From Acidobacteriota bacterium (GTDB lineage Bacteria > Acidobacteriota > UBA6911 > RPQK01 > JAJDTT01), in contig CBDCUP010000019.1 in assembly GCA_965222655.1 (NCBI GenBank), positions 280,825-344,824 of the forward strand: DNA of 64,000 nt, given 5' to 3'. The first letter of the stretch is position 1, and the number at the start of each line of letters is the position of its first letter. Under the pieces are notes generated by a model that had not been told where the DNA came from, did not search any database, and saw only the letters and a list, made by a program, of their open reading frames with translations. Positions 5,185 through 30,294 of this stretch are shown piece by piece. The translations under genes were made by a program, and so were the position numbers.

Positions 5185-6432
5185 CTACAAGAATTCAATA
5201 GTCTGCCCGGCAACCACGTCGCTGGCAGAATAGGCCACTTTGCTCCGGACTCTTCCGTCCGGGTCCAACAGGAGGACCTCGTCCCCTGTGTTGTTGAGGG
5301 GCAGCTTGCCGGCTGGGAGCGAAATCTCATGATCTTCTCCAGCCGCAACGGATCCTTCGAGGCTCAGCCGGCTACCCGCCCGATCCTGCAAGATCCAACC
5401 CTGGAGGTTGGCGGTCGCCGTTCCCAGATTGCGCAAGGTCACACCTTCGAGACCTCGATCGGAACCCACGGGATCGGGCAGAAGCGAAACGATTGCCAAA
5501 GCTCCAGACCCAGCATCGTCGCGTGCGACGATCCTGTCGGTGATCTGGTCGGCAGTGGTCACCACCATCTGTGGACGACCCCGAAACGTGCTGAGCCGAC
5601 CTGTGACATAGGCATAACTCCGTCTCGGGCGACCCTCCCCGTGGCTGAAATAACGCGTCCCCAATAAGTCAGCGATTTCTTCCCCCGCGGGAGCGTCGAT
5701 ATCAGGAAGAAAAAGTTTGAAGGGTTGCTGGTCCGATCCAATGTCGATCAGGCCGTGTCGACCACCCGCCCGGCTAAGAGAATACAGCTCCGTAAACACT
5801 GTAGCGCTTTCTCCTGCCTGGGCCTTGGCCTCCAGGATCGCGTAGTCCAGCCTGGTATTGAGCACCGAAGCGTCCACAGCCTTCAACTTCCGATACTCGT
5901 CGATGATGCTGGCGCGCAGCTGCCACCAGGTGCCCAGCGCGGCGTAGTTTCTGATCTCGACACCATTGACGGTCGTCTGATCCCATACCCCCAGACGCCG
6001 GCGCTGTGCTTCCCGCTCGGCCTCGACGTATCGCTCGTGGTGGCCGGCGAATTGGGCATTGCCGTATTTGACAAAGTAGGGGCTGAATCCTTCCCGAATC
6101 ATGGTTCTCTGGAAATCTACTCCGCCCCGGTAGACGTATACCAACAGCCGGCCGAAATTGCCACGGTGTTTCTGCAGGGCTGTCTCCAAACTCTCATTGC
6201 CCGGAAACTCGATTGTTACCGTGTCTGCGCCCTGGAAAAACTCCTGGGCACGCTTCTTCGCCTCCTTGCCCCAGGGCGTCACCGGCTTGCTACCAAACGA
6301 ATACGACTCTTCTGTGTCCAAGGCCAGAATCCGGAGGGACTCGTCGCTCTGGGCACCGGGTAGAAAAACGCGGATGGTATCGCCATCCACGACGCGACTG
6401 AATCTAACGTCGAGATGGGTTCCTTTGATCAT
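5185..6432 (-). CDS. thermonuclease (SNase-like) family protein with C-terminal lamin-tail domain
   Basis: N-terminal VDGDTIRV SNase-type motif; C-terminal LTD-like region (LRNLGTATANLQGWILQD ... NNTGDEVLLLDPDGR). Confidence 0.65.
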   Translation of the reverse strand: MIKGTHLDVRFSRVVDGDTIRVFLPGAQSDESLRILALDTEESYSFGSKPVTPWGKEAKKRAQEFFQGADTVTIEFPGNESLETALQKHRGNFGRLLVYVYRGGVDFQRTMIREGFSPYFVKYGNAQFAGHHERYVEAEREAQRRRLGVWDQTTVNGVEIRNYAALGTWWQLRASIIDEYRKLKAVDASVLNTRLDYAILEAKAQAGESATVFTELYSLSRAGGRHGLIDIGSDQQPFKLFLPDIDAPAGEEIADLLGTRYFSHGEGRPRRSYAYVTGRLSTFRGRPQMVVTTADQITDRIVARDDAGSGALAIVSLLPDPVGSDRGLEGVTLRNLGTATANLQGWILQDRAGSRLSLEGSVAAGEDHEISLPAGKLPLNNTGDEVLLLDPDGRVRSKVAYSASDVVAGQTIEFL

Positions 6433-6752
6433 ATTCTTGAGGCTACCTCTCCACCGCCTAAAGGCGGTGGATTCGACCTGCGACTAAAGTCGCCTAAAGA
6501 CCTCGCCTCCGATCCAGGCGACTCCCTTGAGCACCTCCAACAGTCGGCTCGGCGCCCACTTCGTCGAGTCGTCGAGCAACCCAGACGCTAGCCGGCTACC
6601 TTCCCTACGCACACCGGCTTGCTGGAGCAAGCCTCCTGAAGGCTTCGCCTAAAGGCGAGGGGGTTCACCCATCCCCGAATGGGACCCTAAGCTGGCACTT
6701 CCTTGACGAGAAGATCATTCAAGAGCCTCGAGTTGACACAGCCGTGATCTTC

Positions 6753-7069: not shown

Positions 7070-8807
7070 GTGAGAGTCCAGATCAAGGCATTATCCATCC
7101 TATTCCTCCTTCTCGGAGCAGCCTTGCTCCCATTGCTGGCACAGATCCCTCGACCTGCTAGCTCAGACCAGTTGTCCCAGTTCACAGTTGTCGAGACCTC
7201 CATCCCGGATACTCAGTTAGCTTTGGAAAAGGGACTGGTGACATCGCGAGGACTGGTGCTGCAGTATCTGGCACGAATCGCCACCTATGAAGACAAACTG
7301 AACGGCGTCATCACGGTCAACTCCGGCGCACTGGGGGAGGCCCGAAGCCCTTGACCGTGAACGGGCTTTGGGCCAGATCCGGGGACCGCTGCATGGGATC
7401 CCGGTGGCTCTGAAGGACAACATCCACACCACGGATATGCCTACTACCGGGGGAGCACTGGCCCTCGACGGCCTCGTCCCCCCCTACGAGGCTACTCTGA
7501 CCCGAAACCTGCGGGCTGCGGGCGCCATCATCCCGGCCAAGACCGCGATGACGGAACTTGCAAACTGGGTGTCGGGACATCCAACGTCAATGCCGGACAA
7601 CTACACTGCCCTCGGCGGATACGGGATGAATCCCTACGATCCACGACGAGATTCCCGAGAGGGCAGCTTCGATGGCCGTCCGGCGCTTTTGCCGGGTGGG
7701 TCCAGCTCGGGAATTGGCACGGCCGTGAGCTTCTGGGCGGCCAACGTGGGAACCGAGACCTCGGGTTCGATCCTGAGTCCTGCCAACCAGAACATGCTGG
7801 TTGGGATCAAGCCTACACTCGGCCGCATCAGCCGACACGGGATTATTCCCATCACCGCCGACCAGGACACGGCCGGACCCATCGCGAGATCCGTGACTGA
7901 TGCTGCGATTCTATTGGGAGTGATGGAAGGGCAAAGGCCGGACGAAAACGATCCGGCCAGCGGCCGATGCGAGCCTCCTCCCGCTAACGACTACACGCCC
8001 TTCCTGAAACGGAACGGTTTGAGCGGAGCTCGTATCGGGGTCCCCAGGCCCTTCTACTACGAAAAGGTCACGCCTCCTGGGACCGAGGGCTCGCGTGGCG
8101 GTCTGAATCCACACCAGGCGAAGGTCATGATGGAGGCACTGGCAGTTCTAAGGCAACAGGGAGCCATAATCGTGGATCCAACCCCGATTCCCAGCATCGT
8201 GCACCCGGACCCGAAGCACAATTTCCTGCTCTGGCCCATCTGCTCTGGAGTTGCACATGCGAAGGGGAAGGACGAGTCCTGCTCCGTGGTCTTCAAGTAT
8301 GGAATGAAACGAGACTTCAACCAGTGGCTGCGCTCCCTGGGCCCGGCGGCTCCGGTGAAGTCACTGACGGAGCTGCGCCAATGGAATCTGGCCCACCAGA
8401 GAGCCGACAGTATCAAGTACGGACAGGCCAGACTGGATATCTCCGACGAGATGGATCTGGATGCAGATCGAACGCGTTACCACTCCGACCGGGCCAAGGA
8501 CCTGGCCCTTGCTGGAAGCCACGGTATCGATAAGGTCATGAAAGACTACCGGCTGGATGCGCTGCTGTTTCCCGGAGCAAAAGGGGCGTCGATCGCCGCT
8601 CGACCAGGGTACCCGACGGTGATCGTCCCCTTCGGCAGGGTTCCCAACGAGCCGACTCCTCCCTTCCCGGAGGGATTCGAGGCGCAGCCTTCCCCCTTTG
8701 GCATCAGCTTCACCGGCCTGGCCTGTAGCGAGCCGAGGCTTATCGAAATCGCCTACGCCTTCGAGCAGGCCACCCGCCGCCGGGTGATCCCACCTGGGTT
8801 TCGGTAG
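7070..8807 (+). CDS. secreted amidase (amidase-signature family) interrupted by a +1 frameshift near 7345
   Basis: ORF 7070-7354 (signal peptide plus N-terminus) and ORF 7368-8807 (GPLHGIPVALKDNI ... GGSSSG) are one gene; frame 2 reads PEALDRERALGQIRGPLHGIP straight across the ORF1 stop. Confidence 0.75.
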
Positions 8808-13104: not shown

Positions 13105-14721
13105 TCAGCTCCCGACGTAAAGGGCATGAAAGCGGATATCCTTTACACCCGCTCCTTCGAAGCTCACCTTGATCTTGAAGGGCTTGTCCCATCCGGTAAT
13201 CCCTTCCTTCCCAGGCCAGGAGACCGCGACACGGAGACCTGATTCCTTGAGCACAGCCCCCTTTGCTCCCGAATAGCCGGCCAGGGGACGCTCGAGTTCG
13301 TCCAACAGCTCCAGTCTCAGCGTGGAGTCATTGGAAACCCCTTCGGCGTTGACCCACAGCTTCGCCGGTCCACCGGTCTGGATGGCGGACGTCATGAAGG
13401 CGGCCGAAATCGAGCTGTCCCTGACTGAGAAGGATCCCAGACGGTCGCGCTCCAGCGTGGCCAAACCCACGCCGCCACGGGGTTTCAGGGACCCCGGGTC
13501 CCAGGTTCCGTACCAGATGTAGGTCTGCTCCTCCACGTTCTCGAAGCCCTGGCCCTGGATCAGTCCTCCCTGGTCCCATTCCTGGCGCTCGCCCCTGCGG
13601 AGAAACACGAACTCGGTGACGGGTTCCCGGAAGTGAAGACCATCGTTGCTGACGACAAAGCCCAGGTCGACGGTTCGCCCCTCCCAATCGGGAGAGCCAT
13701 GCCAGATTCCGTAGAGTCCCAGCAGAACGTTCCCTCGGTTCCAGACACTGATCCCTTCATGGGATTCCTCTCCGCTTCCGCTGCGGACCTTCTTGTACTG
13801 TCCCTCTCGGACGAAGGAGAGAGTCCCGGTGGGATCCCAGTGGGCAAAGTCGGCGGAGCGATGGGTCGCTACGGATCGTCCCCAGGTGTCGACCGGAAAG
13901 ACCGGGCGGGATCCCTGACCCGAGGCATGGTACAGACCATTCCATTTGTAGAGTCCGCCAGCCGCCTCGAAGTGATGCTCAGGTAGGACCATGCTTTCCT
14001 TGGGCAGCAGACCGTCCACCGGAATTCCAGGAACGCCCAGACGCCACTTCAAACCATCGCCGCTCAACGCGGGGGCCAGAGTCCCTTTCCCCTTCTTGTC
14101 TCCCTCGCGCCACCAGGTGTGGAGCGACATCTTGAATTGCCTTGAAGGATCGGGGTCTTCGGGGTCATGGATCACCTTCAGATTGATGACACCCAGCGGC
14201 CCTGGCTCCAGCAGCACCAGATTGTTGCTCCGGCTGTCCTCGTACTCCACCAGACCCAACTCGGGGCGCGTCCACTGAATGCCGTCTTCGCTTTCGGCAT
14301 ACGCGGGCCGCCACTTCAAGGGGACCACGTCGACCCGGGGACTCCACATCTTGTCCTGTTCCACCACCGTGAAGGGATCGCGGGCGGCGGCGACGTACCA
14401 GAGTTTGAACTTTCCCTGGTGGCGGATTACGGAGCCGTAGAACTGGACCCCGAACTCGTCCGGAGCCCCCTCGGGGCCTCTGGGGAGGACCGGATTGTCG
14501 GGATGCTTATTGGGTTGGTTCAGCTGCAGTAGGAGGTTATTGGTATAGGGAATCGAGTAACTGTCAAAAGGGAAAAGCACCGCCTCCTTCACGGTCGGAC
14601 GGCTTCCCACCAGAACCGTCACTCCACCGGACTGGTTCTGGGCACGCTCCTCCTCTTGGCAGGAGGCAGTCAACGACAGGCAGAGAAGGAGAGAGTTTCT
14701 GATCCAGGACAGATATTTCAT
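13105..14721 (-). CDS. secreted/lipoprotein beta-propeller glycoside-hydrolase-like protein (GH43/GH130-like fold; family assignment tentative)
   Basis: Signal/lipobox; shares YAES.DG..W.RPELG..EYE.S..NN and WYGTWD motifs with 25797-27440. Confidence 0.55.
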   Translation of the reverse strand: MKYLSWIRNSLLLCLSLTASCQEEERAQNQSGGVTVLVGSRPTVKEAVLFPFDSYSIPYTNNLLLQLNQPNKHPDNPVLPRGPEGAPDEFGVQFYGSVIRHQGKFKLWYVAAARDPFTVVEQDKMWSPRVDVVPLKWRPAYAESEDGIQWTRPELGLVEYEDSRSNNLVLLEPGPLGVINLKVIHDPEDPDPSRQFKMSLHTWWREGDKKGKGTLAPALSGDGLKWRLGVPGIPVDGLLPKESMVLPEHHFEAAGGLYKWNGLYHASGQGSRPVFPVDTWGRSVATHRSADFAHWDPTGTLSFVREGQYKKVRSGSGEESHEGISVWNRGNVLLGLYGIWHGSPDWEGRTVDLGFVVSNDGLHFREPVTEFVFLRRGERQEWDQGGLIQGQGFENVEEQTYIWYGTWDPGSLKPRGGVGLATLERDRLGSFSVRDSSISAAFMTSAIQTGGPAKLWVNAEGVSNDSTLRLELLDELERPLAGYSGAKGAVLKESGLRVAVSWPGKEGITGWDKPFKIKVSFEGAGVKDIRFHALYVGS

Positions 14722-14919
14722 GTGTCTTCAAGCCCTCAGGCCGATCACCACGGGCTTCCAAGCTACGAGGCAACCTATCTACCGAATACTAGATCTTTGG
14801 GCCCGGAAGGGCAATCTCAGAGGGCGCCGTAACAGGGGAATCTCCGGGAAAGACTGCAATTAGGCTCGCAGATTCTCAATCTCCATCGTTATTCTTGGTA
14901 AGCACCAGATTGAAGACAA

Positions 14920-14969
14920 TGGCGCGCCCGGAGAGATTCGAACTCCCGACCTACGGATTCGAAGTCCGT
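14920..14969 (-). repeat. tRNA-Arg(TCG)-like 3' half (anticodon arm to CCA) with no 5' half; att-like direct repeat, copy 1
   Basis: Reverse complement reads acgga-cttcgaa-tccgt aggtc gggag-ttcgaat-ctctc cgggcgc-g-cca; identical 50-mer at 19949-19998; similarity extends with mismatches to about 90 bp. Confidence 0.7.
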
Positions 14970-15639
14970 TCGGGAAAAGTGCCGAATCGTTAGGAAACGT
15001 TAGGAAACACAACAGGATAGCTGGGTTTTCCGCCAATTAGAAAACCGAATCATTAGGAAAGATTAGGAACCGCAGTGGGAGACATTTGGGAGACAGTGGC
15101 TCAGAAGTTCGACTCTGGGGCGCTGTAGGTGCGCTTTTTCAACGCGCTGTAACTCAGCAGTGGCAGGGGTTTCGCGGGAATCTAAACGAAGAAGCTAGTC
15201 GACGTTCTCGCACCCTGGATTCACTATGGAGCGAGGCTTCAGGGGCTTCGAGAGCGACGGGCCAATTTCGGCGGCAAGATGCTGCTCGCTGCTGCCGTCT
15301 ATTTCCGCTATGTCCTGTGTCTTGTCTCCCAAACCGATCGATCCAGTCAGACCAGAGTAAACGGTCAGGACAGTTTTCAGATCTGCGGTCGCCGGGCCTT
15401 CACTGCAAAGGAATCACGTTGACCGGCTGTCCTGAGAGTTGGACATTGCCATCCTCAGCCTGGACTCCCAGGGCGACTCCATAGACTTCGCCTGAACCAG
15501 CCAGTTCCATCTCTACTAGACCCAAAACAAGTAGATGAAAGTGGATTAAGCCGCGTGTAAACACCTGAAATGCCAGACCTGACGGGTATTCTGGAGTTAA
15601 CAAAGAAACCTCAGAGAGACCCGAAAGGAGGCATTTCAG

Positions 15640-17485
15640 GTGAAGAAAAAGCATAGCGCAATCATCCGAAAGCGGGAAGCAGAAGTTGCTGATCGGCTGA
15701 GCCCCAGTTGGAACGGTGAGGATCCGAAACCGGTCCTCTCGGCCGAAGGCATCAGCTACGAGGTCTCGGAGAAAATTCACGGCGTCAGTTACGGTGGGCT
15801 GGGGCTGCTGCGGCAGATCGTGAAGTGGAGCGGGCTGGGGAAAGCGATTGATCAGGGGGTGAAGTTGTTCAAACGCCACCAGCCGTACCACGAATCGGAC
15901 CACGTGCTGAGCCTGATCTACAACGTGGCCACGGGCGGGACCCGCTATCAGGATATCGAAATGCGGCGTCAAAGTGTCAGCTTCCTGGAAGCGGTAGGAG
16001 CGGAGAAGATCCCCGCGCCCAGCACGGCCGGAGATTTTGTGCGCCGCTTCCAAGCGCCGGATGTGATCGATCTGATGGAAGCCGTCAATGAGAGCCGCCG
16101 CAAGGTCTGGGCCCAACAACCGGCGAGGTTCTTCGAACGGGCGGAGATCGACGTGGATGGCACGATTGCCCCCACCAGCGGGGAATGCAAGGAAGGGATG
16201 GAGATCAGCTACGACGGGCAGTGGGGCTATGCACCGTTGATCGTGACGCTGGCCCAGACGGGAGAGGTGCTCTATGCCGTCAACCGCTCGGGGAATCGCC
16301 CCTCTCATGAGGGAGCCCCCGAATGGCTGGATCGGAGTATCGAGTTGGTCCGAGAGGCGGGTTTTCGAACGGTGCGCCTGCGCGGGGACACGGATTTTTC
16401 GCTGACAGCTCATTTTGACCGCTGGACGGAAGCGGGCGTGGAATTTGACTTCGGGATGGATGCCCATCCGAGCTTCATCAAGTGGGCCGAGGCGTTGCCG
16501 CAAGCGAATTGGAAGGAGCTGGTGCGCCCCGGCAAGGAGAAAGGAAAAGGGAAAAAGCGGCGCAAGCGGCGCGACAAAGTGAAGCCGGAGATTGTCAAGG
16601 AGCGCGGGTTCAAGACCCTGAGGCTGGAACGGGAAGAGATCGTGGAGATCGACTACCGTCCGAGCAAAGCGAAGCGAACGTATCGGCTGGTGATCTTGCG
16701 CAAGACGATCCTGGTCGAGAAAGGCCAGAAGCGGCTTCTGCCGCAGACGCGCTATCACTTTTATGTGGTTCATCCGGTAAATGGGGAGGTGCCGCCAGTC
16801 AAAGGTAGGCCATGGAAACTGCCGCACTATGCAAACCGTGGAAAAACAAGTAGTTCTGGAGGAGAACTGGCAAGTGCTCGCAGTTGTTTTTCCACCGTTC
16901 GCACAGCGCTTGGAAAACTCCGTATCACGGGCTTGCTGGCCCGGTTCGATGTCGCTCGGAGTTTTCCACAGTTCCCACGGCCTCTGCTACTGCAGCCGAC
17001 TATATGGACAAGCGAACGGGGAGCAGATTTGGGATCCGGAAGGTGCCAACCACGTCCCCACCTCCCCATTTACCGGATGACCCTTTTATGTCACGAATAT
17101 CCCGGCGGCCCAGTTGGGAACGGCGGGAGTGGTTCGGGAAAACAACCGGCGCTGCAATCAAGAGAACGTCATTGAACAACTCAAGAACGGAGTCGAGGCC
17201 CTGCGGATGCCCTCGGATACGCTGGTGGCCAACTGGGCCTATCTGGTGATTGCGGCGCAGGCCTGGAATCTGAAGGCCTGGATGGGGTTGGTTCTGCCGG
17301 CTCGACTGCAGGCCAGACAGCTGGTGAAGATGGAATATCGCCGTTTCCTGCGAGAGATCATTGAAATGCCCTGCCAGATTCTGCGGAGGGGCCGACGGTT
17401 GGTCTATCGGCTGCTGGATGTCAATGGTTGGAGCCGTCTTCTCCTGGAAGGCAGTAGGTGGTTGAAACGCCGGCCAGCTACCTGA
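15640..17485 (+). pseudogene. IS1380-family-like DDE transposase, disrupted (N-part 15640-about 16800; C-part 17114-17485; about 300-bp non-homologous insert between)
   Basis: C-terminal ORF carries the IS1380-type motif NQENVIEQLKNGVEALRMPSDTLVANWAYLVIAAQAWNLKAW in another frame from the 511-aa N-terminal ORF; the intervening segment holds two perfect hairpins. Confidence 0.55.
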
Positions 17486-17705
17486 AACTGAAAGGAGATA
17501 AAGAAGCTCTGAGGGTCGCGAGAGCTGGGGAGTAGTGTCTCTGAAAACGCCGCTCAAGGGGGCAGAATCGCCCCGCATGAGCGATCGCCGTGCAGGAGTG
17601 CAGAACACGAGCCGAGGTCTAAGGGACTTAGCGGGAAAATCTAGAATTTAGGCCTCCAAAACGGCCCCCAGGAGCCGGGAAAGGGGTCTACTTTCCAACT
17701 TGCGC

Positions 17706-18470
17706 TTATTTTGGGACTAGAGCGGCAGAGACCGTTTCAGGGAAGCCAGTAATCACCTCGTGGAGAAAGAAAGCTCTCTGGCCCAAGATCTGCACTGTTC
17801 CGGTCAGAGTATTGTCACCCTGCACTACTGAACTCCCTGAGTCCTGCTCTGGTAGATGCACCGTGATATTTACAATCGAGTTGGGTACGGTAACAAAGGC
17901 AGCAACCCCCACGTCAAACCCACCACCCCGAGATGTGACAAAACGGAATCCCCTTCCAGCCGGGGAAGGCGGCACGGCGACACTATCGACCAGATTGTCC
18001 TGGGAATCTCGAATGTTGTAGAAGAATGAAAAAGCAAGGTCGGATAGTGCTGCCCCGGAACCCGTTGTTCTAATCCCCTCCCTCGGAACTTGGAGCAATT
18101 CAAGTCTTTCAACGACTGCGAACCCAGCGAATGGATCAAAAAGAACCTTTGTACGGGCGGTTCCAATCTTAATTCTTAAACACTCTTCAGCACCCAGAAA
18201 GATCGGAACTGGTCCCTGATAGGGGAGCTCGTTAATCAAGAGACTAGTGGGAATTGAACGGTCATTTCGAAACACAGCGAACTGACCTTGAAACCCTCCC
18301 GGCGAGCACACCCTCATCACAGGGGAGTAATACAGATCCCCTACCTGTCCAGCCACGAACTGGGGGAATGCAACAGTATTAAATGGGTCGTGAAAGCTCT
18401 CAACCTCAAGAGACGGCACTAGGATGAGGCTGATTAGAATCGTGAATTGGACCAGGCGCTTTGTTTTCAT
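17706..18470 (-). CDS. hypothetical secreted protein (lower-GC islet)
   Basis: Signal peptide MKTKRLVQFTILISLILVPS; GC content drops in this region. Confidence 0.5.
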   Translation of the reverse strand: MKTKRLVQFTILISLILVPSLEVESFHDPFNTVAFPQFVAGQVGDLYYSPVMRVCSPGGFQGQFAVFRNDRSIPTSLLINELPYQGPVPIFLGAEECLRIKIGTARTKVLFDPFAGFAVVERLELLQVPREGIRTTGSGAALSDLAFSFFYNIRDSQDNLVDSVAVPPSPAGRGFRFVTSRGGGFDVGVAAFVTVPNSIVNITVHLPEQDSGSSVVQGDNTLTGTVQILGQRAFFLHEVITGFPETVSAALVPK

Positions 18471-18963
18471 TGCTTTTCCTCCTCCAAAACTGGACTTCCT
18501 TATTACATTGGAGTTGCTAAGGTCGAGACACCTTCGCTCTGAGACCCGTATTGTCAGTAGATTACGCCTAGAAAAGCCGAAAGGGAAATCTGCTCAAAGA
18601 GAATGACTCGGCATCGGACCAACGGGATAGACTTCGCCAGCTTTAGACCCTTTCCTTGGTACTAGAAAAATGCGAAGATCGAGTTGGGTCACCCACTGAA
18701 AGCTGAAACGCCGGAATACCCGCCTCCGTTTCGGTCTCAAAGGGGCGATCCGGCGCACTTTTTGCGCCGCTTTTAAAATCCGCTTCCTGCCTGGATTTGG
18801 CTGTAGTCGTCGCTCGCAGTTCAATGCTTCCTCTGAGCTGATAACGCGGCCCCGATTGCCAAGCCTATAGCCCCAGTGTCCCATACCGCCTGATGACCTA
18901 GCCCACCTGCCGCCTTGAAGCGCAGCAGAAAGAAGTGGCAAGATGGAGCAAATCGTCAGACTA

Positions 18964-19557
18964 CTATCTGACTCGAATATACCAATATGCCTGCATCAAA
19001 GATGCGATCTGCGCACCTGGATACTCTACCCGACCACGACTTCGAATAGTCTGCGGTGAAGGCCAAGGATCTCTTACAACAACTGACTGTACAATTGGTC
19101 CCCTCGCTGACCGAATAAAGCTTGCATCCGTGACAACGACAGCGTGCCCACTTGGGCCTGATTGGTATGCCACTATCACAGGTCTTCCTTGACTCAGTTC
19201 CTCAAGCAATATTGCTGGTGTTGGTACTCCAACATTCAGTGATGCCGTAACCAAGTATCGTCGCCCTCTGTAGTCAATACTCCAATTGTGCAGGTTAGCC
19301 GTTATTACCCGAAGACTCCCCCCCCAATTCGGCAGGCGGCCAAATGGGTCTGTACGATATGTTCTCGCTACGATTTGTTCTTGCGTTATAGCAACGCCAT
19401 AGTAATTGAGAATCATCTGAATTGATGCAGCCCAACACCATTGAGAGTTGCTTTGAGAGGCCGCAGAAAAAGTCATCTGGGCAGAACGTATTCCTACGTA
19501 TTGGGGAGGCAGCGGATACTGCCTGATTGGGTAACGATCCTCCGCCAGTGCACCCAC
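18964..19557 (-). CDS. C39-like papain-fold cysteine peptidase domain protein
   Basis: QWCWAASIQMILNYYG catalytic-Cys motif and downstream GHAVVV His motif. Confidence 0.6.
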   Translation of the reverse strand: MGALAEDRYPIRQYPLPPQYVGIRSAQMTFSAASQSNSQWCWAASIQMILNYYGVAITQEQIVARTYRTDPFGRLPNWGGSLRVITANLHNWSIDYRGRRYLVTASLNVGVPTPAILLEELSQGRPVIVAYQSGPSGHAVVVTDASFIRSARGPIVQSVVVRDPWPSPQTIRSRGRVEYPGAQIASLMQAYWYIRVR

Positions 19558-19681
19558 CGGAGATTGCGACGACGAGTCTTCTTCTTGCTGTTTGCTCGAA
19601 TTCGAGAGGGCATCAGTCCTAGCCGGTCACTAGCCTATGGCTTAGGCGTCTTGAAAGAGGAGTTTCCCCTGGGGTGGAACG

Positions 19682-19942
19682 TGTGCAAAATGGGCACAGG
19701 TCCCGTGGTTAAGAATTCACGATCTGCGGCGATTTCGGGCAACCCAGTGGGCAATGGCAGGTATCCCAGTGCACACGATTCAGAAGCTTCTCGGGCATGC
19801 TAGTTTGCAGACGACGACAAGGTATCTACAACATGTGGACGCCTCGTTCGACCTTGTGCGGGCGGCTTTTGAGCGGGAGAGTGGGAGACAAATAGGAGAC
19901 ACCCCTGAAGGCCTGTCAGAGGCACTTCCGCTAAACCATTGA
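19682..19942 (+). pseudogene. tyrosine recombinase (phage integrase) C-terminal remnant
   Basis: Frame reads WLRIHDLRRFRATQWAMAGIPVHTIQKLLGHASLQTTTRYLQHV (R...HxxR...Y catalytic box); no upstream N-terminal domain; ends 7 bp before the att-like repeat. Confidence 0.7.
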
Positions 19943-19948
19943 AAAGAA

Positions 19949-19998
19949 TGGCGCGCCCGGAGAGATTCGAACTCCCGACCTACGGATTCGAAGTCCGT
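19949..19998 (-). repeat. tRNA-Arg(TCG)-like 3' half, att-like direct repeat copy 2
   Basis: Identical 50-mer to 14920-14969; no tRNA 5' half follows. Confidence 0.7.
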
Positions 19999-20508
19999 GA
20001 CGCAAAAGCACGAATCGTGACGAAACCTTTATAAAACAACGCATCTGGCCTGGTTCTCCGTCAGCGACAAACGTGAATCATGACGATAGATTGAGCATCG
20101 CAGCGGGTGAAAAGCGGGTGATCACCCACTCACCCTCCCGACCCTCAGGATTTCAGGAGCAACCGTACAACCGAATTCAATCGCGCCGCTTGGGGGGATC
20201 CCTTTTCCCTCACTCCAGAGCTGCCTCACTTCCGGGCTCGCAGACGCCAGTAGTATGTGCCACCTCTTCGGCAATAGCGCCCAGGAGGTCATCGACTTGT
20301 GCGATGAGACTTGTGGTTTGGATCTGGGCGGGTACAAGCGATTGCGAGGAGTCCTACGTACAGCTCTAGATGAATGGCAAAAGAAGGGGCCCGATGACTG
20401 GGTTGGCGATTTCAGAGTGATTCAAGCGTTCTGGTGGGCAGTGGATCGTGAGATCGGGATTGCCGAGGGCTAGTCCCTGGCGTCGTTTCGGGTGCCAGAG
20501 ACAGAGTG

Positions 20509-21285
20509 TCAGGGTACTTGATTCATGACCGTCGATGGTATAGTTGTGAAGAGGGTACTCCCGGTTTGGCGTAGTCCGATCATTGACAGCACCTGCCCCG
20601 AGTCCGCCATCACCATCACCGTGCCGACGAAGTCAGGTGGGATCTCCGCGCCCGGCAGTTCATCCACGAACAGCGCAATCTTCGTCATCATACTCAGAGT
20701 CTGGCTATGGGATACAATGACGTCAAACGTCGGATCATAGACATTGATCTGTATCTGCTGGTCGACATTGCTGCTATTGAAAACCGCGATTCCCAGCCGC
20801 ACGTTGCCCCGTTGGTCCATCGTCACCTGCAGCATGTTACCTCGAGGGGAAGAGAAAACTGTGGCCTCAGCCAACTTCTCTCCGTCGGCTGCATAGTAGG
20901 AATAGATCACCTGTGCTGTGACCTCACTCGAGCAGTTCACAGTCAATGCGCCCGTCTGGAGGGGCACCGTTCCGAACACCTTGTAGACGGCCCAGCCGAA
21001 AGGAATCAGACCGAAATTAAATGAAGAGGCGCTTTCCCCACCCACGATATCAACGAACGTCGGTGTGGCGCCCTTCGTTTCCACAGCACAACTGACGCCG
21101 GTGGCCGAGGTCCAATTCGTAACCATCAGCGTAAACTCGTAGTAGCTTCCGTCCGGAAAAGAGCCGAAAACCACCTGAGGGATTTCGTGGAAGGTAGCGC
21201 GTCCATCGGAAGCTCCGGTGGCTTGGGCTAGGGCCGATGTGGGTACCACGAACAATAGACTGATGAGGACAATTGTCTTCTTCAT
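20509..21285 (-). CDS. hypothetical secreted protein
   Basis: Signal peptide MKKTIVLISLLFVVPTSALA; 258 aa. Confidence 0.5.
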   Translation of the reverse strand: MKKTIVLISLLFVVPTSALAQATGASDGRATFHEIPQVVFGSFPDGSYYEFTLMVTNWTSATGVSCAVETKGATPTFVDIVGGESASSFNFGLIPFGWAVYKVFGTVPLQTGALTVNCSSEVTAQVIYSYYAADGEKLAEATVFSSPRGNMLQVTMDQRGNVRLGIAVFNSSNVDQQIQINVYDPTFDVIVSHSQTLSMMTKIALFVDELPGAEIPPDFVGTVMVMADSGQVLSMIGLRQTGSTLFTTIPSTVMNQVP

Positions 21286-21595
21286 GGTGTCTCCTTTGTC
21301 AGGTCGGCATATGCACGGGACGCCATCAGCGGGTGCACGGTTGGAGTGTATCCGGATACTTCATCCTACGAGGTGACGGAGAGGAGAGTCAATGGGTACC
21401 AGATTCTAGGACCCTGAAGCTGCGTTCGGAGATCCGGGGAAGGAGGCATGGGCGCGCTCTCCATCACACGAGTACACTACTCTGACATGAATTCACAAGC
21501 AAAAAAGCGTAGGAAAAGCTGAAGAACCAGCGGGCCTCTCTGGCTGCCTTCCGACGCTGCGGCAAGGTAGACATGGCTGCTAAGGTGGCTAGCAT

Positions 21596-21984
21596 CCTAG
21601 GGGCTTCCCGTGTTGCGTGCGCTTCCCTGGTGTACATGCTGTCGCCACTACCCCGGCGCAGCGACTGGGTGCCTGCTCCGCTCACTTCCCCAGCCCTATC
21701 AGCCTTCCCCGGTCTAGGAGCCGGGTCGGCCTGCGCATCGTCCTTTTCGAGGCTTGCTCAGCGTTCACTCGCGTTACGGCCTGCACACTCGCGCGGTCAC
21801 CAATTCGTGACTCGCTTCACCAGAGGCTTCAACCATTTCGTTACCTCCATAGTTGCTCCGGTTGCTTCCGGCTGGAGCGGTTGCCGGGTGGGACTCTCAC
21901 CCACTGGGAAAGCGCCGCCTTACCACGGCGCACCCTAGAAGCGGTCATTCAAGTTTCCCGCGGAAACGTCGAATGAACGACCGC
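21596..21984. repeat. about 390-bp inverted repeat, copy A (partner at 25109-25498)
   Basis: About 98% identical to the reverse complement of 25109-25498; the 119-aa ORFs inside it on opposite strands are mirror images. Confidence 0.85.
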
Positions 21985-22106
21985 AAAACGGCCATAACCG
22001 GTCACCCGTACTCAGCAGCCTAGCACATCGTGTGGTCGTTCTTTGAGGTCTCGGGAATGACTTGAATGCTCGACGATCTTGCCGTTCTACCTGTTGTAGG
22101 TGAAGT

Positions 22107-24822
22107 TCACTCCGTCGGGACCAGCTGCTTGAGCTCTTCGAACCAGTTGAGGACGATAGTCAACTGCGAGCGTGCGGAGGCTTGCTCTTCGACGTCCTTC
22201 AGCATCAGGAAGCGCTGTCCGTCGCGGTCAATGTCGTAGTTTCGACCCGCGGCCACGCTGTAGCTTCCGGTGAACAACACTTCAGGACTTCCCGCCTTGA
22301 AAGTGGGCTCGGTTTCGACACGCACCACCATCATGCGATCACCGCTACGATAAAACAGCTCTCGCCCGTCCGGTGCCCACACTGTCGAGACTCCCCAATC
22401 ACCTGAGATCTGCCACTTTCCTTCCTCCACGTTGGGGAAGGGGCGAACATAGATTTCATCGCGCCCGGTCTCATAGGAGCGATAGGCAATGAACCGGCCA
22501 TCGGGGGAGATCTCTGCACGGCTTGTGGGTCCCACGTTCTGCAAACCAGTTGAGTCCTGGTAGCGACCTTGGATAAGCATCTTCGCGATGGGCTCAGCCC
22601 CCAGCGACGCCACGCCAATGCCAGCCATCCCGGCGACTCCCCCCCATTCTGAGAAAACCAGCGTCTTGCCATCAGGGGTGAAGGAATAGGGGTCTTGGTG
22701 GTTTGGACGCGTAGTGAGTTGCTCAACCTGACCTGTACCGTCCGCCCTCTTCCAGAATAGGTCACTCCCCTCTGCACCCTGGCGGCTGGACGCGAACAAC
22801 AGTCGTTGACCATCCGGGGTCCAGACCGGGCAATCGTCACGAGCCGGATCGAAGGTGAACCGACTGAGTGTCTCGCGGACCAGATCATAGATCCAGATCT
22901 CGCCGTCAAGATCTCTCTGACCGATAACCACGGCCATGCGCTTTCCGTCTGGGGAGATCCGGGGGAAACGGTAAAAGTGCGGCTCTGCAGCCAAGGGTTC
23001 CTCCCGCCCCTCCCGATCCACCCAGACCAGGCGCCGCCTGGAAGAAGCTGGACCTCCACCGGGCAGATAAACAAGAGTTCCGGTCCGTGAGAAATCGAAC
23101 TGGGCCTGAGACAATTCTGGCCGTGACCTAACGCCTTCGAGGATCGGAACCGGCGAGTCTGTCAGCTCCAGCCGATCGAGATCAAAAGGTGCAGCAAAGA
23201 GGGTGGCCTCTCGCATGAACACCAGGTGTCCCGTGGGGAGATAGCGGCCAAGGTAACCGCCTTGCTGAAGGACTCTTCTTTCGCCCGTCTCCAGAGACTG
23301 GGCTACAATGTTCCAGGATTGGACGTTCCCCCTGTCACCGGCACTGAAAAGCACCCATTCGCCGCCCGGCAAAACATGAGGGTATCGATGGGAATCCTCG
23401 CCGTTTTCTAGGTCTGGGACTGTAACCTCATCGGGCATTCCGCCGGTGGCGGGAACGTGTGACAGGCCCCTCAGGCCCGTCAAAGCAAAGACGATGGTGT
23501 CATCAGCAGCCCAGCTCGCCCCTTCCATGTTCGGGGATGGCACACCACACAAAGTCAGCGGCGCCCCACCAGAGAAGGCGACCTTTTTGAGCTTCTGATT
23601 GGCGGCGAATCCCACCCACTGGCCATCGGGAGAGAAGAAAGGACTGTGTGCCCCTTCCGTTCCAGCCAGAAGCCTGCCTTCTAATTCATCGAGGGCTCGC
23701 ACATAGAGGTTGATCCCTTGGGATTCTGTGACCGCGTAGGCCAGGCGCTTGCCGTCAGGAGAAATGGCCATGGCGGGGCCAGGATCTGTGTGCAGCGATT
23801 GGTCGGGGGACAAACCGAGACGAAATCGCATCGGCGTTGGTTCTACCGGATCGGTTGCCTGCCACTGCCAGAGCAGCGAAAGCAAAAATGCGACCGCCAA
23901 CAGTCCGGCAATTCCCCAGGGAAGAATCCGGGACACCGATCTTTCCACGTCGGATGCTGTTTCGAAGGAATCCTCGCTGCCAGACGCCAGCTCAGCCAGA
24001 TCAGTCCCCACCTCATGGACGGACTGGTAGCGTCGGTCCGGCTCTTTGGCCAGCATCTTTCTGACCGTGTGCTGAAGCAGTCCCGGTGCCTTGTCCAGAT
24101 ACTTGGTCACAGGGGCAGCGGCTTCATTGAGAACGGCATTGGCCGTCTCCACCGAGGAATCCTTCTGGAAGGGATGAAACCCAGTCAGCATCTCGTAGAG
24201 CACTACGCCGAAGGAGAAGATGTCAGAGCGAGCATCGATCTCTTGTCCTCGCAATTGCTCCGGGGACATATAAGGTACGGTCCCAAGCGTGTCACCCGTT
24301 TGGGTCAGGTTGGCGGTGAGGGTCTTTTCCTGACTGTCTCCTCCGTCCGCAGGAGTCAGCCGTTTGGCCAACCCAAAATCCAGGACCTTGATGTGCCCCT
24401 CGGGGGTGATCATGATGTTCGAGGGCTTGAGATCCCGATGGATGATGTTCTGCCGGTGGGCGGCTTCTAGGGCCTCGGCAATCTCGGTGGCCTTTTCGAG
24501 CGCGTCCGGTAGAGCAAGCGCGCCTTCTTCCAGCAGGTCCTTGAGCGTCTCGCCTTGGACATATTCCCGAGATGAAGGAGTTGCCTTCCGCTTCCCCCAC
24601 CTCATGAATGTGGCAAATATAGGCGTGGTCCAGCGCGGCCGCCGATTTGGCTTCCCGCAAAAACCGCTTCCTGGCGGTTTCGTCTCCCTGCATCTCCTCG
24701 GTCAGGAATTTCAAAGCGACTTTGCGATCTAGTCTCGTGTCTTCCGCCAGATACACCTCGCCCATCCCGCCTTCGCCGAGCTTAGAGGTGATCTTGTAAT
24801 GGGAGATGGTCTGGCCTAACAA
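22107..24822 (-). CDS. Hanks-type Ser/Thr protein kinase fused to TolB-like (PD40/WD40) beta-propeller, frameshifted at a G-run near 24567
   Basis: ORF 24292-24822 has kinase subdomains I-IV ([14 protein letters not shown]); ORF 22107-24605 continues with subdomain V onward ([22 protein letters not shown]), a TM segment and PD40 repeats; removing one g from the tcgggaat run near 24567 restores a single reading frame (...[13 protein letters not shown]...). Confidence 0.75.
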
Positions 24823-25108
24823 CGAGCCTCCAAGCTGTAGGGGAGCCTATCTAGCGAATACTAGATCTTTGAGTCTGGAAGGGCAATCTCAGAGGACGGT
24901 GGATATAAGAAATAGGAAGGATAGGCGGAACTCAATCCGCCTTTTCCGCTGACACTCGGAACGTTGTTTGCTGCGACGCTGGTCGTGTGCTTGAAACTGC
25001 CATCCTTGTCCTTGTTTCTCGCAAAGGCAACCCATTCTCTTCAGCCACAAGCTTTTCGTGGTCGCATGACCGCTTGGTCTGTGCGGAATGACCGCTTTTG
25101 GGCCGGTT

Positions 25109-25498
25109 AGCGGTCGTTCAATCGACGTTTCCGCGGGAAACTTGAATGACCGCTTTTAGGGTGCGCCGTGGTAAGGCGGCGCTTTCCCAGTGGGTGAGAG
25201 TCCCACCCGGCAACCGCTCCAGCCGGAAGCAACCGGAGCAACTATGGAGGTAACGAAATGGTTGAAGCCTCTGGTGAAGCGAGTCACGAATTGGTGACCG
25301 CGCGAGTGTGCAGGCCGTAACGCGAGTGAACGCTGAGCAAGCCTCGAAAAGGACGATGCGCAGGCCGACCCGGCTCCTAGACCGGGGAAGGCTGATAGGG
25401 CTGGGGAAGTGAGCGAAGCCGGCACCCAGTCGCTGCGCCGGGGTAGTGGCGACAGCATGTACACCAGGGAAGCGCACGCAACACGGGAAGCCCCTAGG
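25109..25498. repeat. about 390-bp inverted repeat, copy B
   Basis: See 21596-21984; a partial related motif (gttcgacgtttccgggaaaatttgaatgaccgctt) recurs at about 27640-27710. Confidence 0.85.
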
Positions 25499-25796: not shown

Positions 25797-27440
25797 ATGA
25801 CGATTCGACCTTTCCCGGAACTTTTCGTTGTTGGAGGTGTGCTGCTTGCCCTCACAGCTGATGCTTGGCCAGGGGCTCCCTCTTCCATCGAAATCGGATC
25901 CAGGAAGCAGCTTTTCATCGACGACGCCATTCTAGATCGCACCCACCTCATCACCCGGGTTCTCAACCGTCCGCGTAAACATGCCGGAGGGCCTGTCCTC
26001 AAGCCAGAGCGGAAGTGGGAGGGGAACTTCGTTGCCGCCAGCAATGTGATCTACGACGCCCAGGAGCGCCTCTTCAAGATGTGGTACGTGCCCAACCTGA
26101 TCACGACCCAGCCGCTGCCCCGGCCCATCGAAGAGTACGAGAACCTGCTCCGGGCTGCCAAATACCTCGAGGAGCTGGACCTTTCATGTTACGCGATCTC
26201 CCGGGACGGTATTCACTGGGAGAGACCGGAGCTGGGTATGGTCGAGTTTGAAGGATCGAAGAAGAACAACATCTTCTCCGGCGAGTCGGTCCGCTCCAAG
26301 GGGGCTCTCTACGGGGCGGGGCGAGCGCCCAACGGCTTCAAGGACCTACAGGAAAAGAATCCTGCCCGTCGCTACAAGGGACTGGGCTACGCCCGGAGCG
26401 CCAATGGCGAGACGGGTATCTGTCTCTACTTCTCAGCAGACGGCATCCACTGGAAGGAGTACGAAGGCAACCCGGTCATGGTGGGCACCGGAGACACCCA
26501 CACGGTTCTGGGCTGGGATCCGGCCAGGGGCAAATACGTGGCCTACCTGCGTCCAGGATGGAAGGACTACCGGGAGGCGGTGGATGCCTTCGAGAGCCTT
26601 CCCGCCCAGGTTCGGGCCGCCAGCATCCCCCGCTACTCGGTGGACCTGCTGGCCCCCCCTGCAGGTGATCGCCGCAAGCGCACCATCGGCTTCTCGGAGA
26701 GCGCCGATTTCATCCGCTGGAGCCCCATCGAGCCCGCTTTGATTCCCGACGACGAGGATCCAGTAGATCTCCAGTTCTATGGAATGCCGGTCATGCTCTA
26801 TGAGGATCTCTACCTGGGTTTTCCCTGGGGTTTTCGGACCAATGCCCTCACCATAGATACGCAGTTCGCCTACAGCAGGGACGGCAAGCGGTTCCTTCGG
26901 CTCCGGGATCGGGCCTCCTTCATCCCCCTGGGAGCCAACGGGACCTGGGACGACGGCTGTATCTATGGACGCCAGCCCTTCGTGTACGAGGATCGAATCC
27001 TGTTCTATTACGTCGGGGTCAATTGGACACACGGCGCCGAGGGTCTCCTGGCCGAAGGGGACAGGTCCCAGGCCGCCATCGGTCTGGCAACACTTCCGCT
27101 GGACGGGTTTGTTTCCCTCGATGCGGGTCCGGCCATGGGGACGGCCACCACCCGGCCGCTGAGCTTTGAGGGGAGTCGTCTGGTCGTCAACTTCGAGGAT
27201 GCCGAGAGGGGCTCGGCCGGGATGCATCAGGGGTCTTCGCTGCAGGTGGAGGTGCTGGATCCGCTGGGTGATCCCATTGAGGGGTTCGAGCTAGGGCAGG
27301 CTGAGGCGCTGACCCGGAGCTCTATGAAGCATGCCGTGTCCTGGAAGGGGGGATCCGACCTGAGTCGGCTGACAGGGCAGCCCGTGCGACTGCGATTTCA
27401 CCTGCGAAACGGAAAGCTCTATTCGTTTCGATTTCGGTAG
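25797..27440 (+). CDS. secreted beta-propeller glycoside-hydrolase-like protein (GH43/GH130-like; tentative), intact paralog
   Basis: Signal peptide; KWEGNFVAASNVIYD...FKMWY; YAISRDGIHWERPELGMVEFEGSKKNN; C-terminal jelly-roll-like tail LRFHLRNGKLYSFRFR. Confidence 0.55.
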   Translation: MTIRPFPELFVVGGVLLALTADAWPGAPSSIEIGSRKQLFIDDAILDRTHLITRVLNRPRKHAGGPVLKPERKWEGNFVAASNVIYDAQERLFKMWYVPNLITTQPLPRPIEEYENLLRAAKYLEELDLSCYAISRDGIHWERPELGMVEFEGSKKNNIFSGESVRSKGALYGAGRAPNGFKDLQEKNPARRYKGLGYARSANGETGICLYFSADGIHWKEYEGNPVMVGTGDTHTVLGWDPARGKYVAYLRPGWKDYREAVDAFESLPAQVRAASIPRYSVDLLAPPAGDRRKRTIGFSESADFIRWSPIEPALIPDDEDPVDLQFYGMPVMLYEDLYLGFPWGFRTNALTIDTQFAYSRDGKRFLRLRDRASFIPLGANGTWDDGCIYGRQPFVYEDRILFYYVGVNWTHGAEGLLAEGDRSQAAIGLATLPLDGFVSLDAGPAMGTATTRPLSFEGSRLVVNFEDAERGSAGMHQGSSLQVEVLDPLGDPIEGFELGQAEALTRSSMKHAVSWKGGSDLSRLTGQPVRLRFHLRNGKLYSFRFR

Positions 27441-28230: not shown

Positions 28231-28560
28231 TGCTCCGCGGGTTTCGGTGGAGGCTTTGGCTTTGTTGTTGTGTTTCTTGAGGGCGGGTGCCTCTGCTTGT
28301 CGCTGATCTCTTAGAGAGGTTCATGTTGAGCTCAACATAAAGAACGTTTTCTGGTGATTGTGATCGCTGCACCTCACTGCTGTCCGGTTTATTTTTCGAG
28401 GTCTGGCTGAAAGCCTTATGTGATGGGGCTTTGGGGAGATGGTGGAAAGAAGGGGGTTGTTTTTGGCCCGGAAGCTCCTGGGCCCGATTTGGGAAGGGGA
28501 CCTACCTTGGTTAAACTCTTTGGTTGTCATCAAAAAGCCAAAGAAGACCAAGGAGATCCC

Positions 28561-29748
28561 ATGGCCAAGTATACGTCAGTCCTGCATCAGTTGCTCCGTC
28601 ATATCCCCCGGGATGAGTTTCGCGCCATCGTGGAGCGCCGCCAAGGTGACAAGGGAGTCCGGAAGTTGTCGTGCTGGGGGCAGTTCGTGGCCCTTTTTTT
28701 CGGGCAGTTAACCGGACAGCATAGTTTGAGGGATCTGGTAACCGCTTTAGATGCAGGGCGAAAGAAGCTGCAGCAAGTGGGGCTGGGGGCGGTGAGCCGC
28801 TCCACGCTGGCGGATGCGAACCGCAAACGACCCCAGGAGATCTTCGGGGAGCTGTTTTCTTGCCTGTACAGCCGCTGTCGGAGTCAGGCTCCCGGTCAGC
28901 GTTTCGGCTTCCGGCATCGGGTGTACAGTCTGGATGCGACGGTGATCGATCTGTGCCTGAAAGTCTTTGACTGGGCGAAGTTTCGCAAGCGAAAAGGGGC
29001 GATCAAGTTACATCTGATCTTGGATCACGGGGGGCACATCCCCAGCTTTTGCGTGATGACCCCGGGCCGGGAGCACGAGATCGAGGTGGCGCGCGGCCAG
29101 CGCTACGAACCGGACAGCATCCTGACCTTTGACCGGGCCTACGTGGACTACCACTGGTTTGACCAACTCCACCGCCAGGGGGTGTACTTCGTGACCCGGC
29201 AGAAGCGCAACGCGCGTTACCGGGTGCTGGAGCGGCGGCCGGTGGGCTCCCCGCCGGGGATCACCTCGGATCAAGTCATTCGTCTGACCGGGAAGGCGGC
29301 CGGATGCCTGTCGACTCCCCTGCGCCGCATCGGCTACCGGGACCCGGAGACGAGGCAGTTCTATGTCTTCTTGACCAATCTGTTTCATCTCAGGGCGGCT
29401 GAGGTGGCCGCCATCTATAAGGCTCGCTGGCAAATCGAGCTGTTCTTCAAATGGGTCAAGCAGCACCTGAAGATCAAGAGCTTTCTGGGGACCACGGCCA
29501 ATGCGGTGATGACGCAGGTCTGGGTGGCGCTGTGTGTCTACCTGCTGGTGGCCTACGTGAAGTTTCTGCTGCGGCCCCCCGGGCGCCTGTACGAGATTTT
29601 CAAGCGGCTGCAGGTCACGGCCCTAGAGTACCTGGCTCTGGGGCAGGTCTTGACCTGGGAGACGAAAAACGGGCCCAAACGGGCACCAAAGTGGAGACAG
29701 CGCAACTTGTTCGGAAGACGGCTAAGGCCTTTGTTTGTAGGAGGATAG
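28561..29748 (+). mobile_element. IS4-family DDE transposase (apparently intact)
   Basis: DDE_Tnp_1-type C-terminus with YKARWQIELFFKWVKQHLKIK; ORF track start 28420, but Met at 28561 is the likelier start. Confidence 0.75.
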
Positions 29749-29886
29749 GAGTCGAGTGACTATAACCTTACAGTTAAGAGAGCTTTAAGTCTTTTAGAAT
29801 CAACGACATCAAACCGGACACTAGTGGGCCACGACCCAAACAATGGAGTGCCTTTCCCTCGATTTGATCGAGCATTCAAGAAAGGG

Positions 29887-29962
29887 TGGTCCCGGTGGGG
29901 TTCGAACCCACAGACTCCCGATTTTGAGACGGGCGCATGTGCCAATTCTGCTACGGGGCTTC
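29887..29962 (-). tRNA. tRNA-like gene, unresolved (good T-arm; acceptor strands not complementary)
   Basis: T-arm gtggg-ttcgaac-cccac and 3' cgggacc-a present; 5' strand reads gccccgt; anticodon loop ambiguous (ucUCAaaa). Confidence 0.35.
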
Positions 29963-30038
29963 TGGCCGGCTCGGGAGGAATTGAACCTCCAACGCGCAGG
30001 GCTTCAACCTGCCGCTCTACCCTTGGGGCTACGAGCCG
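29963..30038 (-). tRNA. tRNA-Phe(GAA)
   Basis: Hand-folded: acceptor cggctcg/cgagccg, anticodon arm gcagg-ttGAAgc-cctgc, T-arm ggagg-ttcaatt-cctcc, CCA encoded. Confidence 0.8.
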
Positions 30039-30291: not shown

Positions 30292-30294
30292 TCT

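Follow-up and report, generated by a model that had tools for sequence, protein, structure and literature searches.

A window of 64,000 nucleotides, i.e., the whole stretch of DNA that was analyzed, was taken from contig CBDCUP010000019.1 of an Acidobacteriota bacterium, and all positions below are counted from its first letter. The segment from 14909 to about 21595 very probably represents the remains of two different tyrosine-integrase elements, here called islands A and B, which were inserted successively into a minus-strand tRNA-Arg(UCG) gene and then decayed. The initial annotation had proposed a decayed tRNA-targeting integrative element, possibly from two successive integrations. The element itself is supported by core identity with an intact tRNA gene, attachment (att)-type junctions, and an integrase stump. 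Two integrations are now preferred because the two sides of the second repeat copy carry the arm words of two element types.

An exact 50-mer, TGGCGCGCCCGGAGAGATTCGAACTCCCGACCTACGGATTCGAAGTCCGT, was found in two copies in the window, both on the minus strand, in direct orientation and 5029 bp apart. No third copy was found in the window at up to three mismatches, and shuffled sequences give an expectation of 0. The reverse complement of the 50-mer is 100% identical to nucleotides 28-77 of the intact 77-nt tRNA-Arg(TCG) gene in L002, a locus in a related Acidobacteriota metagenome-assembled genome (MAG). These nucleotides are the canonical positions 27-76, CCA included, i.e., the anticodon arm, variable loop, T arm, 3' acceptor strand, and CCA. 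The earlier assignment of the 50-mers was therefore correct, and the intact target that it had advised to search for was located in this relative. Both fragments have the orientation of the target tRNA gene (tDNA), as displaced 3' tDNA fragments do in islands of the Islander type. The core features are as follows.

14909-14919: 11-nt block directly 3' of the tRNA end (ATTGAAGACAA), common to copy 2, L001, L002, and L003

14920-14969, minus strand: core copy 1, tRNA-Arg(UCG) positions 27-76; putative displaced 3' fragment and attR-type junction of island A

19949-19998, minus strand: core copy 2, tRNA-Arg(UCG) positions 27-76; putative hybrid junction at which the integrase side of island A adjoins the X2 side of island B

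Neither copy has a 5' half, as had been noticed before. Thirteen tRNAs were predicted in the window by ARAGORN, none of them at either core site, and the Rfam tRNA model scored the cores at 27.1 and 26.7 bits, under the gathering score of 29. The native 5' half of tRNA-Arg(TCG), GCGCCCGTAGCTCAGCTGGATAGAGCG, had no match anywhere in the window, in which neither an intact tRNA-Arg(UCG) nor any tRNA fragment beyond the two cores was found. The missing 5' halves are accounted for if copy 1 is a displaced fragment and copy 2 an inter-element junction. The weaker similarity around the 50-mers, previously put at about 90 bp, is real and was underestimated. It covers 11 nt on the left (ATTGAAGACAA / ATTGAAAAGAA) and approximately 130 nt on the right, at 65% identity and with a common architecture. 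In a scan of one genome per species, the 50-mer was found at five loci in three Acidobacteriota MAGs. The recurrence of 50-mer and arm together at several loci of related genomes, each an att-type junction, favors an att-site duplication over a dispersed repeat, as first proposed.

The right flanks of the cores were recognized as arms of one architecture.

14970-15098, plus strand: X1 arm (P-arm type), with TTAGGAAA at 14990, 15000, and 15053, TTAGGAAC at about 15063, a central GGGTTTTCCGCC, and a GGGAGACA pair at 15077 and 15088

19999-20126, plus strand: X2 arm, with the architecture of X1 and other words, i.e., TGACGA[AT]A at 20018 and 20081 and a GCGGGTGA pair at 20103 and 20114

The layout runs GAATC, a 9-mer pair, approximately 20 nt, GGGTTTTCCGCC, approximately 15 nt, GAATCA, a second 9-mer pair, and a final pair of 8- or 9-mers. 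The two arms gave nhmmer E-values of 7e-36 and 5e-28, and no X arms besides X1 and X2 were found in the window. The words of X1 are TTAGGAAAC and TGGGAGACA (TTAGGAAAC occurs four times and GGGAGACA twice), and those of X2 are TGACGAAAC-like and GCGGGTGA. A third type, X3, with the words TCTAACGAAA and CTGGACGA, was found in L001 and L005. In total, 12 arm copies fell into these three sequence types, all of one architecture. Between types, both members of each direct-repeat pair switch in concert, which would be the behavior of protein-binding arm sites and not of base-paired RNA. Alignment folding gave no conserved RNA fold in X, and covariation was seen in the tRNA anticodon and T arms only. 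X1 and X2 are identical at 85 of 131 positions (65%), and the cores at 50 of 50, as a single tRNA origin of the cores and an origin of the arms in two elements would predict.

The X1-type arms were collected by a metagenome scan for the X1 word pattern and from the genome loci. These arms, 85-96% identical, join the tRNA at position 27 in fragments of Arg(TCG), Arg(ACG), Leu(TAG), and Leu(TAA), and in three loci a 17-nt anticodon stem-loop is the sole tRNA part attached to the arm. The identity block is anticodon-centered, i.e., of attP site type A, and starts at position 27 in all four tRNA species. Discordant 27-43 pairs were found, i.e., a C27 x U43 mismatch in the integrase-adjacent tRNA of L023, a C27 x A43 mismatch in the displaced fragment of L006, and a G27.U43 wobble in L015. 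These are suggestive of a 3' part that came from the element and of a crossover within the loop. Viral contigs were scanned with the X1 word pair and also with 40 nt of the core, and neither scan gave a match.

The shared words indicate which arms belong together. On the plus strand of the window, GGGAGACA occurs at three sites only, i.e., at 15077 and 15088 in X1 and at 19883 in the integrase stump, and TTAGGAAA is confined to X1. The last integrase codons contain a GGGAGACA-AAT-AGGAGACA pair at 19883-19901. In L008 and L010, an Arg(ACG) core lies between an X1-type arm and an integrase-end remnant with GAGACA-TGT-GGGAGACA. Because GGGAGACA is exclusive to X1 and the stump on the plus strand of the window, and because of the arrangement in L008 and L010, the two are assigned as the probable arms of one attP opened by integration, and island A would extend from 14970 to 19948. 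It is flanked by direct repeats of attL and attR type, in which the identical cores are accompanied by X1 and by the P' arm. The final pair of X2, GCGGGTGA, resembles a GCGGGCGA pair at the integrase end of L002, the type of which differs from the integrase of island A (int_A), and in L003 a remnant of an L002-type integrase end precedes the core and X2. Copy 2 therefore appears to be a hybrid junction, with a type-A P' arm on its left and a type-B P arm on its right, as tandem integration of different elements would leave. It is reasonable to consider X the distal arm of the element, given the shared words and the X3-type homology which runs approximately 100 nt further into the element side in two loci.

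The following history may be proposed. The attP of each element would have consisted of an integrase-proximal P' arm, a core of 50 nt that copies tRNA positions 27-76, and a distal X arm of approximately 130 nt made of paired direct repeats. Recombination centered on the anticodon stem-loop would give the order flank, core, X, island, integrase, and regenerated tRNA. A second integration into a core would then give flank, core 1, X1, island A, int_A, core 2, X2, and island B. Copy 1 would be the displaced fragment of A and copy 2 the junction of A and B, and neither would ever have had a 5' half. The regenerated tRNA should be expected only at the far end of island B. During the subsequent decay, int_A would have been reduced to 95 aa, an IS1380 copy would have split a cargo gene and afterwards been hit by a miniature inverted-repeat transposable element (MITE), and the far end of island B, which bore the B integrase and the regenerated tRNA, would have been lost or moved.

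The layout postulated for the target was found intact elsewhere. In L002, 15 nt separate the 3' end of tRNA-Arg(TCG) from the end of an integrase gene that is truncated (225 aa) and seems to be decayed. This canonical integrase-tRNA layout, together with the difference between cores (100% identical) and arms (65%), points to an att-site duplication and not to a simple duplication. An intact tDNA at the integrase-proximal end is lacking in the window and is present in L002, L015-L017, L019, L023, and L024. On the 5' side of the L002 tRNA, a second, full-length integrase (380 aa; 1397-2539, minus strand) followed by phage-like genes (methyltransferases) abuts the tRNA, which thus has integrases on both sides. 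The C-terminal catalytic segment of the 380-aa integrase was the closest local match to the stump in the window, 58% over 41 aa.

In L005, a live-looking element abuts a core and X1 unit. Its integrase, beside this unit, belongs to a large Acidobacteriota family with 135 matches at E <= 1e-20. Eight look-ups of the family gave a consistent layout, i.e., an integrase on the plus strand followed by an intact tRNA on the minus strand, and the targets were Arg(TCG), Arg(TCT), Arg(ACG), Asp(GTC), and Ser(TGA). The majority of the loci have, ahead of the integrase, a DUF7146-Toprim primase, a TubC_N protein, and a MerR/HTH_17 excisionase-like gene. One integrase, P0001, with an identical protein and a near-identical P' arm, was found at Arg(TCG) in four contigs (L015-L017 and L019) and at Arg(TCT) in L018. 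These two tRNAs have a common anticodon stem, ACGGA/TCCGT, and different T arms. The primase-integrase element of L005 is itself bracketed by inverted att-type units, i.e., X3 with a Leu(TAG) stem-loop on the left and the Arg core with X1 on the right. A 43-nt box, found in two copies (702-744 and 7216-7258), adjoins either unit on the outside; positions 813-960 are also involved. This suggests an inversion or nested integrations.

Several observations weigh against the two-element history. No complete relative, with integrase and tRNA at one end and core and X at the other, was found among 18 integrase loci, and neither a distal fragment nor an X arm was found within 10 kb of these loci. A word-indexed protein search with the 95-aa stump gave no homologue, including no close full-length one. 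No second integrase remnant, i.e., that of island B, was detected in the window by tblastn. The homology at the outer end of X1 stops sharply in nine loci, which is unusual for random decay. In L023 and L024, tRNA-Arg(TCG) lies 5 nt from tRNA-His, and no tRNA-His neighbor of tRNA-Arg(TCG) is present in the window, so the expected anchor is missing. A later rearrangement probably removed or displaced it with the far end of island B. In a MAG that is 98% related, the 50-mer exists in three copies, each of them a fragment, which hints that the target tRNA may have been lost from this lineage, or it may differ in sequence. Cells such as E. coli, which have a tRNA-Arg(ACG) with inosine, can dispense with tRNA-Arg(UCG).

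Other explanations were weighed against the two-element history. The main rival, which is disfavored and quite improbable, takes the unit of tRNA 3' part and X, approximately 190 bp, as a small dispersed mobile repeat (tRNA-derived, MITE-like or like a short interspersed nuclear element) which brackets the 5 kb by chance. It would fit the several core and X copies per related genome (three in one MAG), the lack of an integrase near most copies, and the sharp boundary, which follows GGGAGACAGTG in the nine loci mentioned above. However, the tRNA part varies (four isoacceptors or the stem-loop only) and X is constant, so the unit is not copied whole. Neither target duplications nor terminal inverted repeats surround it, as far as the sequence can be read. 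Integrase ends abut the core in the window, L002, L003, L005, and L010, and the arm words recur in the integrase-side arm. Copy 2 with both its sides could alternatively be the native, unrecombined attP of one larger element, which would require a single integration event. The order of integrase, core, and X does look like an attP and is also found in L005 and L003, but the left side carries the GGGAGACA words of type A and the right side the GCGGGTGA words of type B, which belongs with another integrase type. Moreover, the type-A partner arm, X1, is found 5 kb further left, oriented as the other end of A should be. A single event is accordingly considered improbable.

A local segmental duplication of a stretch with the tRNA fragment, without site-specific recombination, would explain the direct repeat at a distance of 5029 bp and the partial similarity of the flanks. 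Even decay would then be expected, whereas identity is 100% over the exact tRNA part and 65% in the arm, and the repeat words were replaced in concert, which makes this origin very improbable. It is also hardly credible that a split tRNA is encoded, i.e., that the fragments function as half-tRNA genes and an Arg-like 5' half in the tRNA array 11 kb away completes them. The array does contain an Arg-like pseudo-tRNA (30776-30850; Rfam 36 bits, model positions 6-65) whose acceptor 5' strand, GCGCCCG, matches and whose 3' strand is mismatched, and the initial annotation had found its presence there curious. It does not represent the missing 5' half. The sequence shares the acceptor 7-mer and loop motifs, but it is identical to the native gene at only 57 of 80 positions, has its own anticodon and T arms and a different 3' part, and is a separate degenerate gene. 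The 7-mer is generic for the Arg tRNAs of the group, as it is found in Arg(TCG) and Arg(TCT) and, changed at one position, in Arg(ACG). X has neither complementarity to the array copy nor a conserved structure, and the same X joins Leu and other Arg fragments. No separate native 5' half with a complementary leader is present in the window.

The genes and insertions of island A, returning to the history of two successive elements, are as follows.

15400-15515, minus strand: C-terminal part (approximately 40 codons) of a secreted-protein gene, cut off by the insertion sequence (IS); in frame after a single CTAG is restored

15516-17720, plus strand: IS of the IS1380 family including its target duplication; transposase at 15640-17485, interrupted

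16767-17082: MITE-like insert of 316 bp with 25-nt terminal inverted repeats and a 9-bp duplication, CTTTTATGT, at 16758-16766 and 17083-17091

17706-18470, minus strand: cargo hypothetical protein of 254 aa with a signal-peptide-like N-terminus and without family match

18964-19557, minus strand: cargo papain-like cysteine peptidase, Peptidase_C39_2 / C70 (Pfam)

19655-19942, plus strand: tyrosine-integrase C-terminal stump of 95 aa (Pfam), with the predicted P' arm of island A in its last codons

The disrupted IS1380-like transposase, C39-like peptidase, and integrase stump of the initial annotation were all recovered in Pfam. The stump covers positions 127-169 of the 172 of the Phage_integrase profile (PF00589). 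Its motifs HDLRR and LLGHASLQTTTRY (...TTTRY) are present, and it lacks the first catalytic Arg along with the rest of the N-terminal two thirds. The distance to copy 2, given earlier as 7 bp, needs correction, as the stop codon lies 6 nt before the core. The position and orientation of the stump are correct for an integrase adjoining tDNA, and no other integrase-like sequence was found in the window. An exact-sequence look-up of the peptidase gave no match. Searches of Pfam, NCBIfam, and PHROGs yielded for island A only the stump, the IS transposase, the peptidase, and one family-less protein; functional genes for its own recombination or transfer are lacking. The secreted cargo proteins of islands A and B were tested as candidate paralogues and are not paralogous.

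The IS proper occupies 15520-17716, between 4-bp CTAG target duplications at 15516-15519 and 17717-17720, and has the terminal repeats ACCCAAAACAAG / TCCCAAAATAAG. The DDE_Tnp_1_4 domain (PF13701, E = 8e-19), which is of IS1380 type, was found in two pieces, at 15640-17175 and 17114-17485, and assigns the element to IS1380 together with the terminal inverted repeats and the 4-bp duplication. When the IS and one CTAG are removed, 18470-17721 joins 15515-15400 in frame, and the original cargo gene had approximately 290 codons. An IS1380 copy formed by recombination between unrelated DNA was considered and is disfavored by the single CTAG duplication and the in-frame continuation of the cargo gene, which indicate a simple insertion. 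The 316-bp MITE is absent from the 99.9%-identical strains L011-L013, in which the transposase is intact (506 aa). In another sample, island A is split at the IS1380 copies onto two contigs. The drop in GC content noticed between the repeats reaches its lowest level in the island A cargo to the right of the IS, up to copy 2. When the IS is left out, island A has a GC of 0.52, below every other 2.8-kb stretch (mean 0.581, sd 0.019), and the IS itself, at 0.58, is ordinary for the window.

Other insertions were noticed in this region. A MITE-like element of approximately 250 bp, at window 6436-6692, is missing from that place in the 99.9%-identical assembly L011, in which a 93%-identical copy of it (5230-5485) lies at the equivalent of window 19640-19650, just upstream of the stump. 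The copy-1 region of L011 is shortened to 65 nt from 144, which looks like an assembly error or a local deletion. The region is a very active spot of insertion and rearrangement.

Island B extends from 19999 to about 21595, and beyond the X2 arm it contains the following remainder.

20127-21595: remainder of island B, with a 258-aa secreted hypothetical protein (20509-21285, minus strand) and the start of a small open reading frame (ORF); 98% identical to L003

The comparison with related strains for presence or absence of the segment, which had been recommended, was informative here. L003 lacks island A, yet it is 98% identical to window 19925-21596, with an extra IS, i.e., across island B. 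Left of the core, approximately 75 nt of a B-type integrase end are fused to the N-terminus of a kinase in L003. The similarity ends where a 398-nt group II intron fragment starts, and beyond this point L003 has a Leu(TAG) fragment with an X1-type arm. In L013 (11158-11163, window 20128-20340), a tandem duplication of 212 bp follows right after the X2 arm and is either real or an assembly artefact.

The group II intron 5' fragments, 398 nt each, are two inverted copies (21596-21993, minus strand, and 25101-25498, plus strand) that are 98% complementary. Both matched Rfam group-II-D1D4-4 with 102.8 bits, and neither has an adjacent reverse-transcriptase ORF. The left copy marks the end of the L003 similarity and cuts the small ORF (MA[AT]KVASI...). 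The two copies bracket a frameshifted Ser/Thr kinase-PD40 gene (22107-24822, minus strand).

The tRNA array (29885-31296, minus strand) comprises 12 tRNA genes and the Arg(TCG)-like pseudo-tRNA in 1.4 kb. Several of its Rfam scores are low or sub-threshold, i.e., 25.9 bits for the Pro call, no tRNA-model match for the His call, and 39 bits with the tRNA-Sec model for the Ser call. An IS4-like/DUF4372 transposase gene (28420-29748), mobile in sister strains, lies directly beside it. The array looks accessory and possibly imported.

Two further repeated features were found in the window. An 80-nt sequence is present at 14747-14826 and 24819-24898 (83% identical between copies) and also in L003 (1291-1408), upstream of unrelated genes, i.e., those of a 538-aa GH32-like protein and of kinases. 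On its minus strand it reads TTGCCC-17 nt-TAGTAT, and it may be a shared promoter or leader module. The genes at 13105-14721 (minus strand) and 25797-27440 (plus strand), one on each side of the island and IS region, are distant paralogues (23% identity, E = 3e-20) that encode a secreted protein of approximately 540 aa with a weak match to the GH32 N-terminal beta-propeller.

For annotation, the value of this reading is that two orphan tRNA fragments, a pseudo-integrase, and a low-GC patch become one coherent scar, to which the nearby tRNA array is unrelated. An uncharacterized Acidobacteriota family of tRNA-targeting elements was also documented, the arm repeats of which could locate island ends without integrase or tRNA. 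The strain comparison revealed very recent movement of IS and MITE between 99.9%-identical strains. It is conceivable, if rather doubtful, that small, primase-carrying integrative elements form a family spread across Acidobacteriota, in which the conserved arms and the tRNA-derived core can be separated as modules; this idea arises from the X1-type arms on four tRNA cores and from the one integrase protein at both Arg(UCG) and Arg(UCU). If it were true, the integrases would read little beyond the anticodon stem-loop, and the many orphan core and arm scars, the two of this window among them, would still be usable landing pads for element stacking and cargo exchange.

The arms may be compared with a lambda-type attP, which has a core and arm-type sites for the integrase N-terminal domain and for accessory proteins. 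The putative attP is alike in its length of approximately 250 bp, in the paired direct repeats of both arms at fixed distances from the core, and in words that co-vary with element type. It differs in having a 50-nt stretch of tRNA as its core and P' words that fall within the coding end of the integrase, and binding is predicted here. A cis-mobilizable element (CIME) is a short att-flanked island which has been stripped of its own recombination or mobility genes and stands in tandem with another element through a resident att site. Island A resembles it in being short and att-flanked, in the loss of its own recombination and mobility genes, and in the tandem with island B. Carrying identical cores and both arms, it could be a non-autonomous, CIME-like island, at most movable in trans. 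However, the host belongs to Acidobacteriota and not to Firmicutes, and the related live elements carry a primase module instead of a conjugation module. CIMEs and the accretion of integrative elements are the subject of a review (PMC5704250).

In the Islander database, anticodon-centered attP sites are the commoner of two classes, with 2083 of 3919 islands, and tandem islands are common (PMC4383910). The segment is like the tandem tRNA/tmRNA islands of Islander in the direct orientation of 3' tDNA fragments at the ends, the 'A'-type identity block, the integrase beside the tDNA end, and the stacking of islands by successive integrations. It is unlike them in that the window lacks an intact anchoring tDNA and a complete integrase, so a search for tDNA, fragment, and integrase would not call it. 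A strict island definition excludes the segment on these same two points, and decay would explain both. A comparable case, recurrent integration at ssrA in Dehalococcoides, has been reported (PMC3146451). Partial tRNA genes derived from mobile-element integration and mis-called as tRNAs have been described in detail for archaea and noted also for Bacteria (PMC9897764). The fragments in the window very probably have the same origin by integration and differ in scoring under the thresholds of tRNA callers. Tandem decayed tRNA islands are a common and well-understood kind of scar. The element family and its arm code are new only as members of this known kind, and current understanding is not challenged by them.

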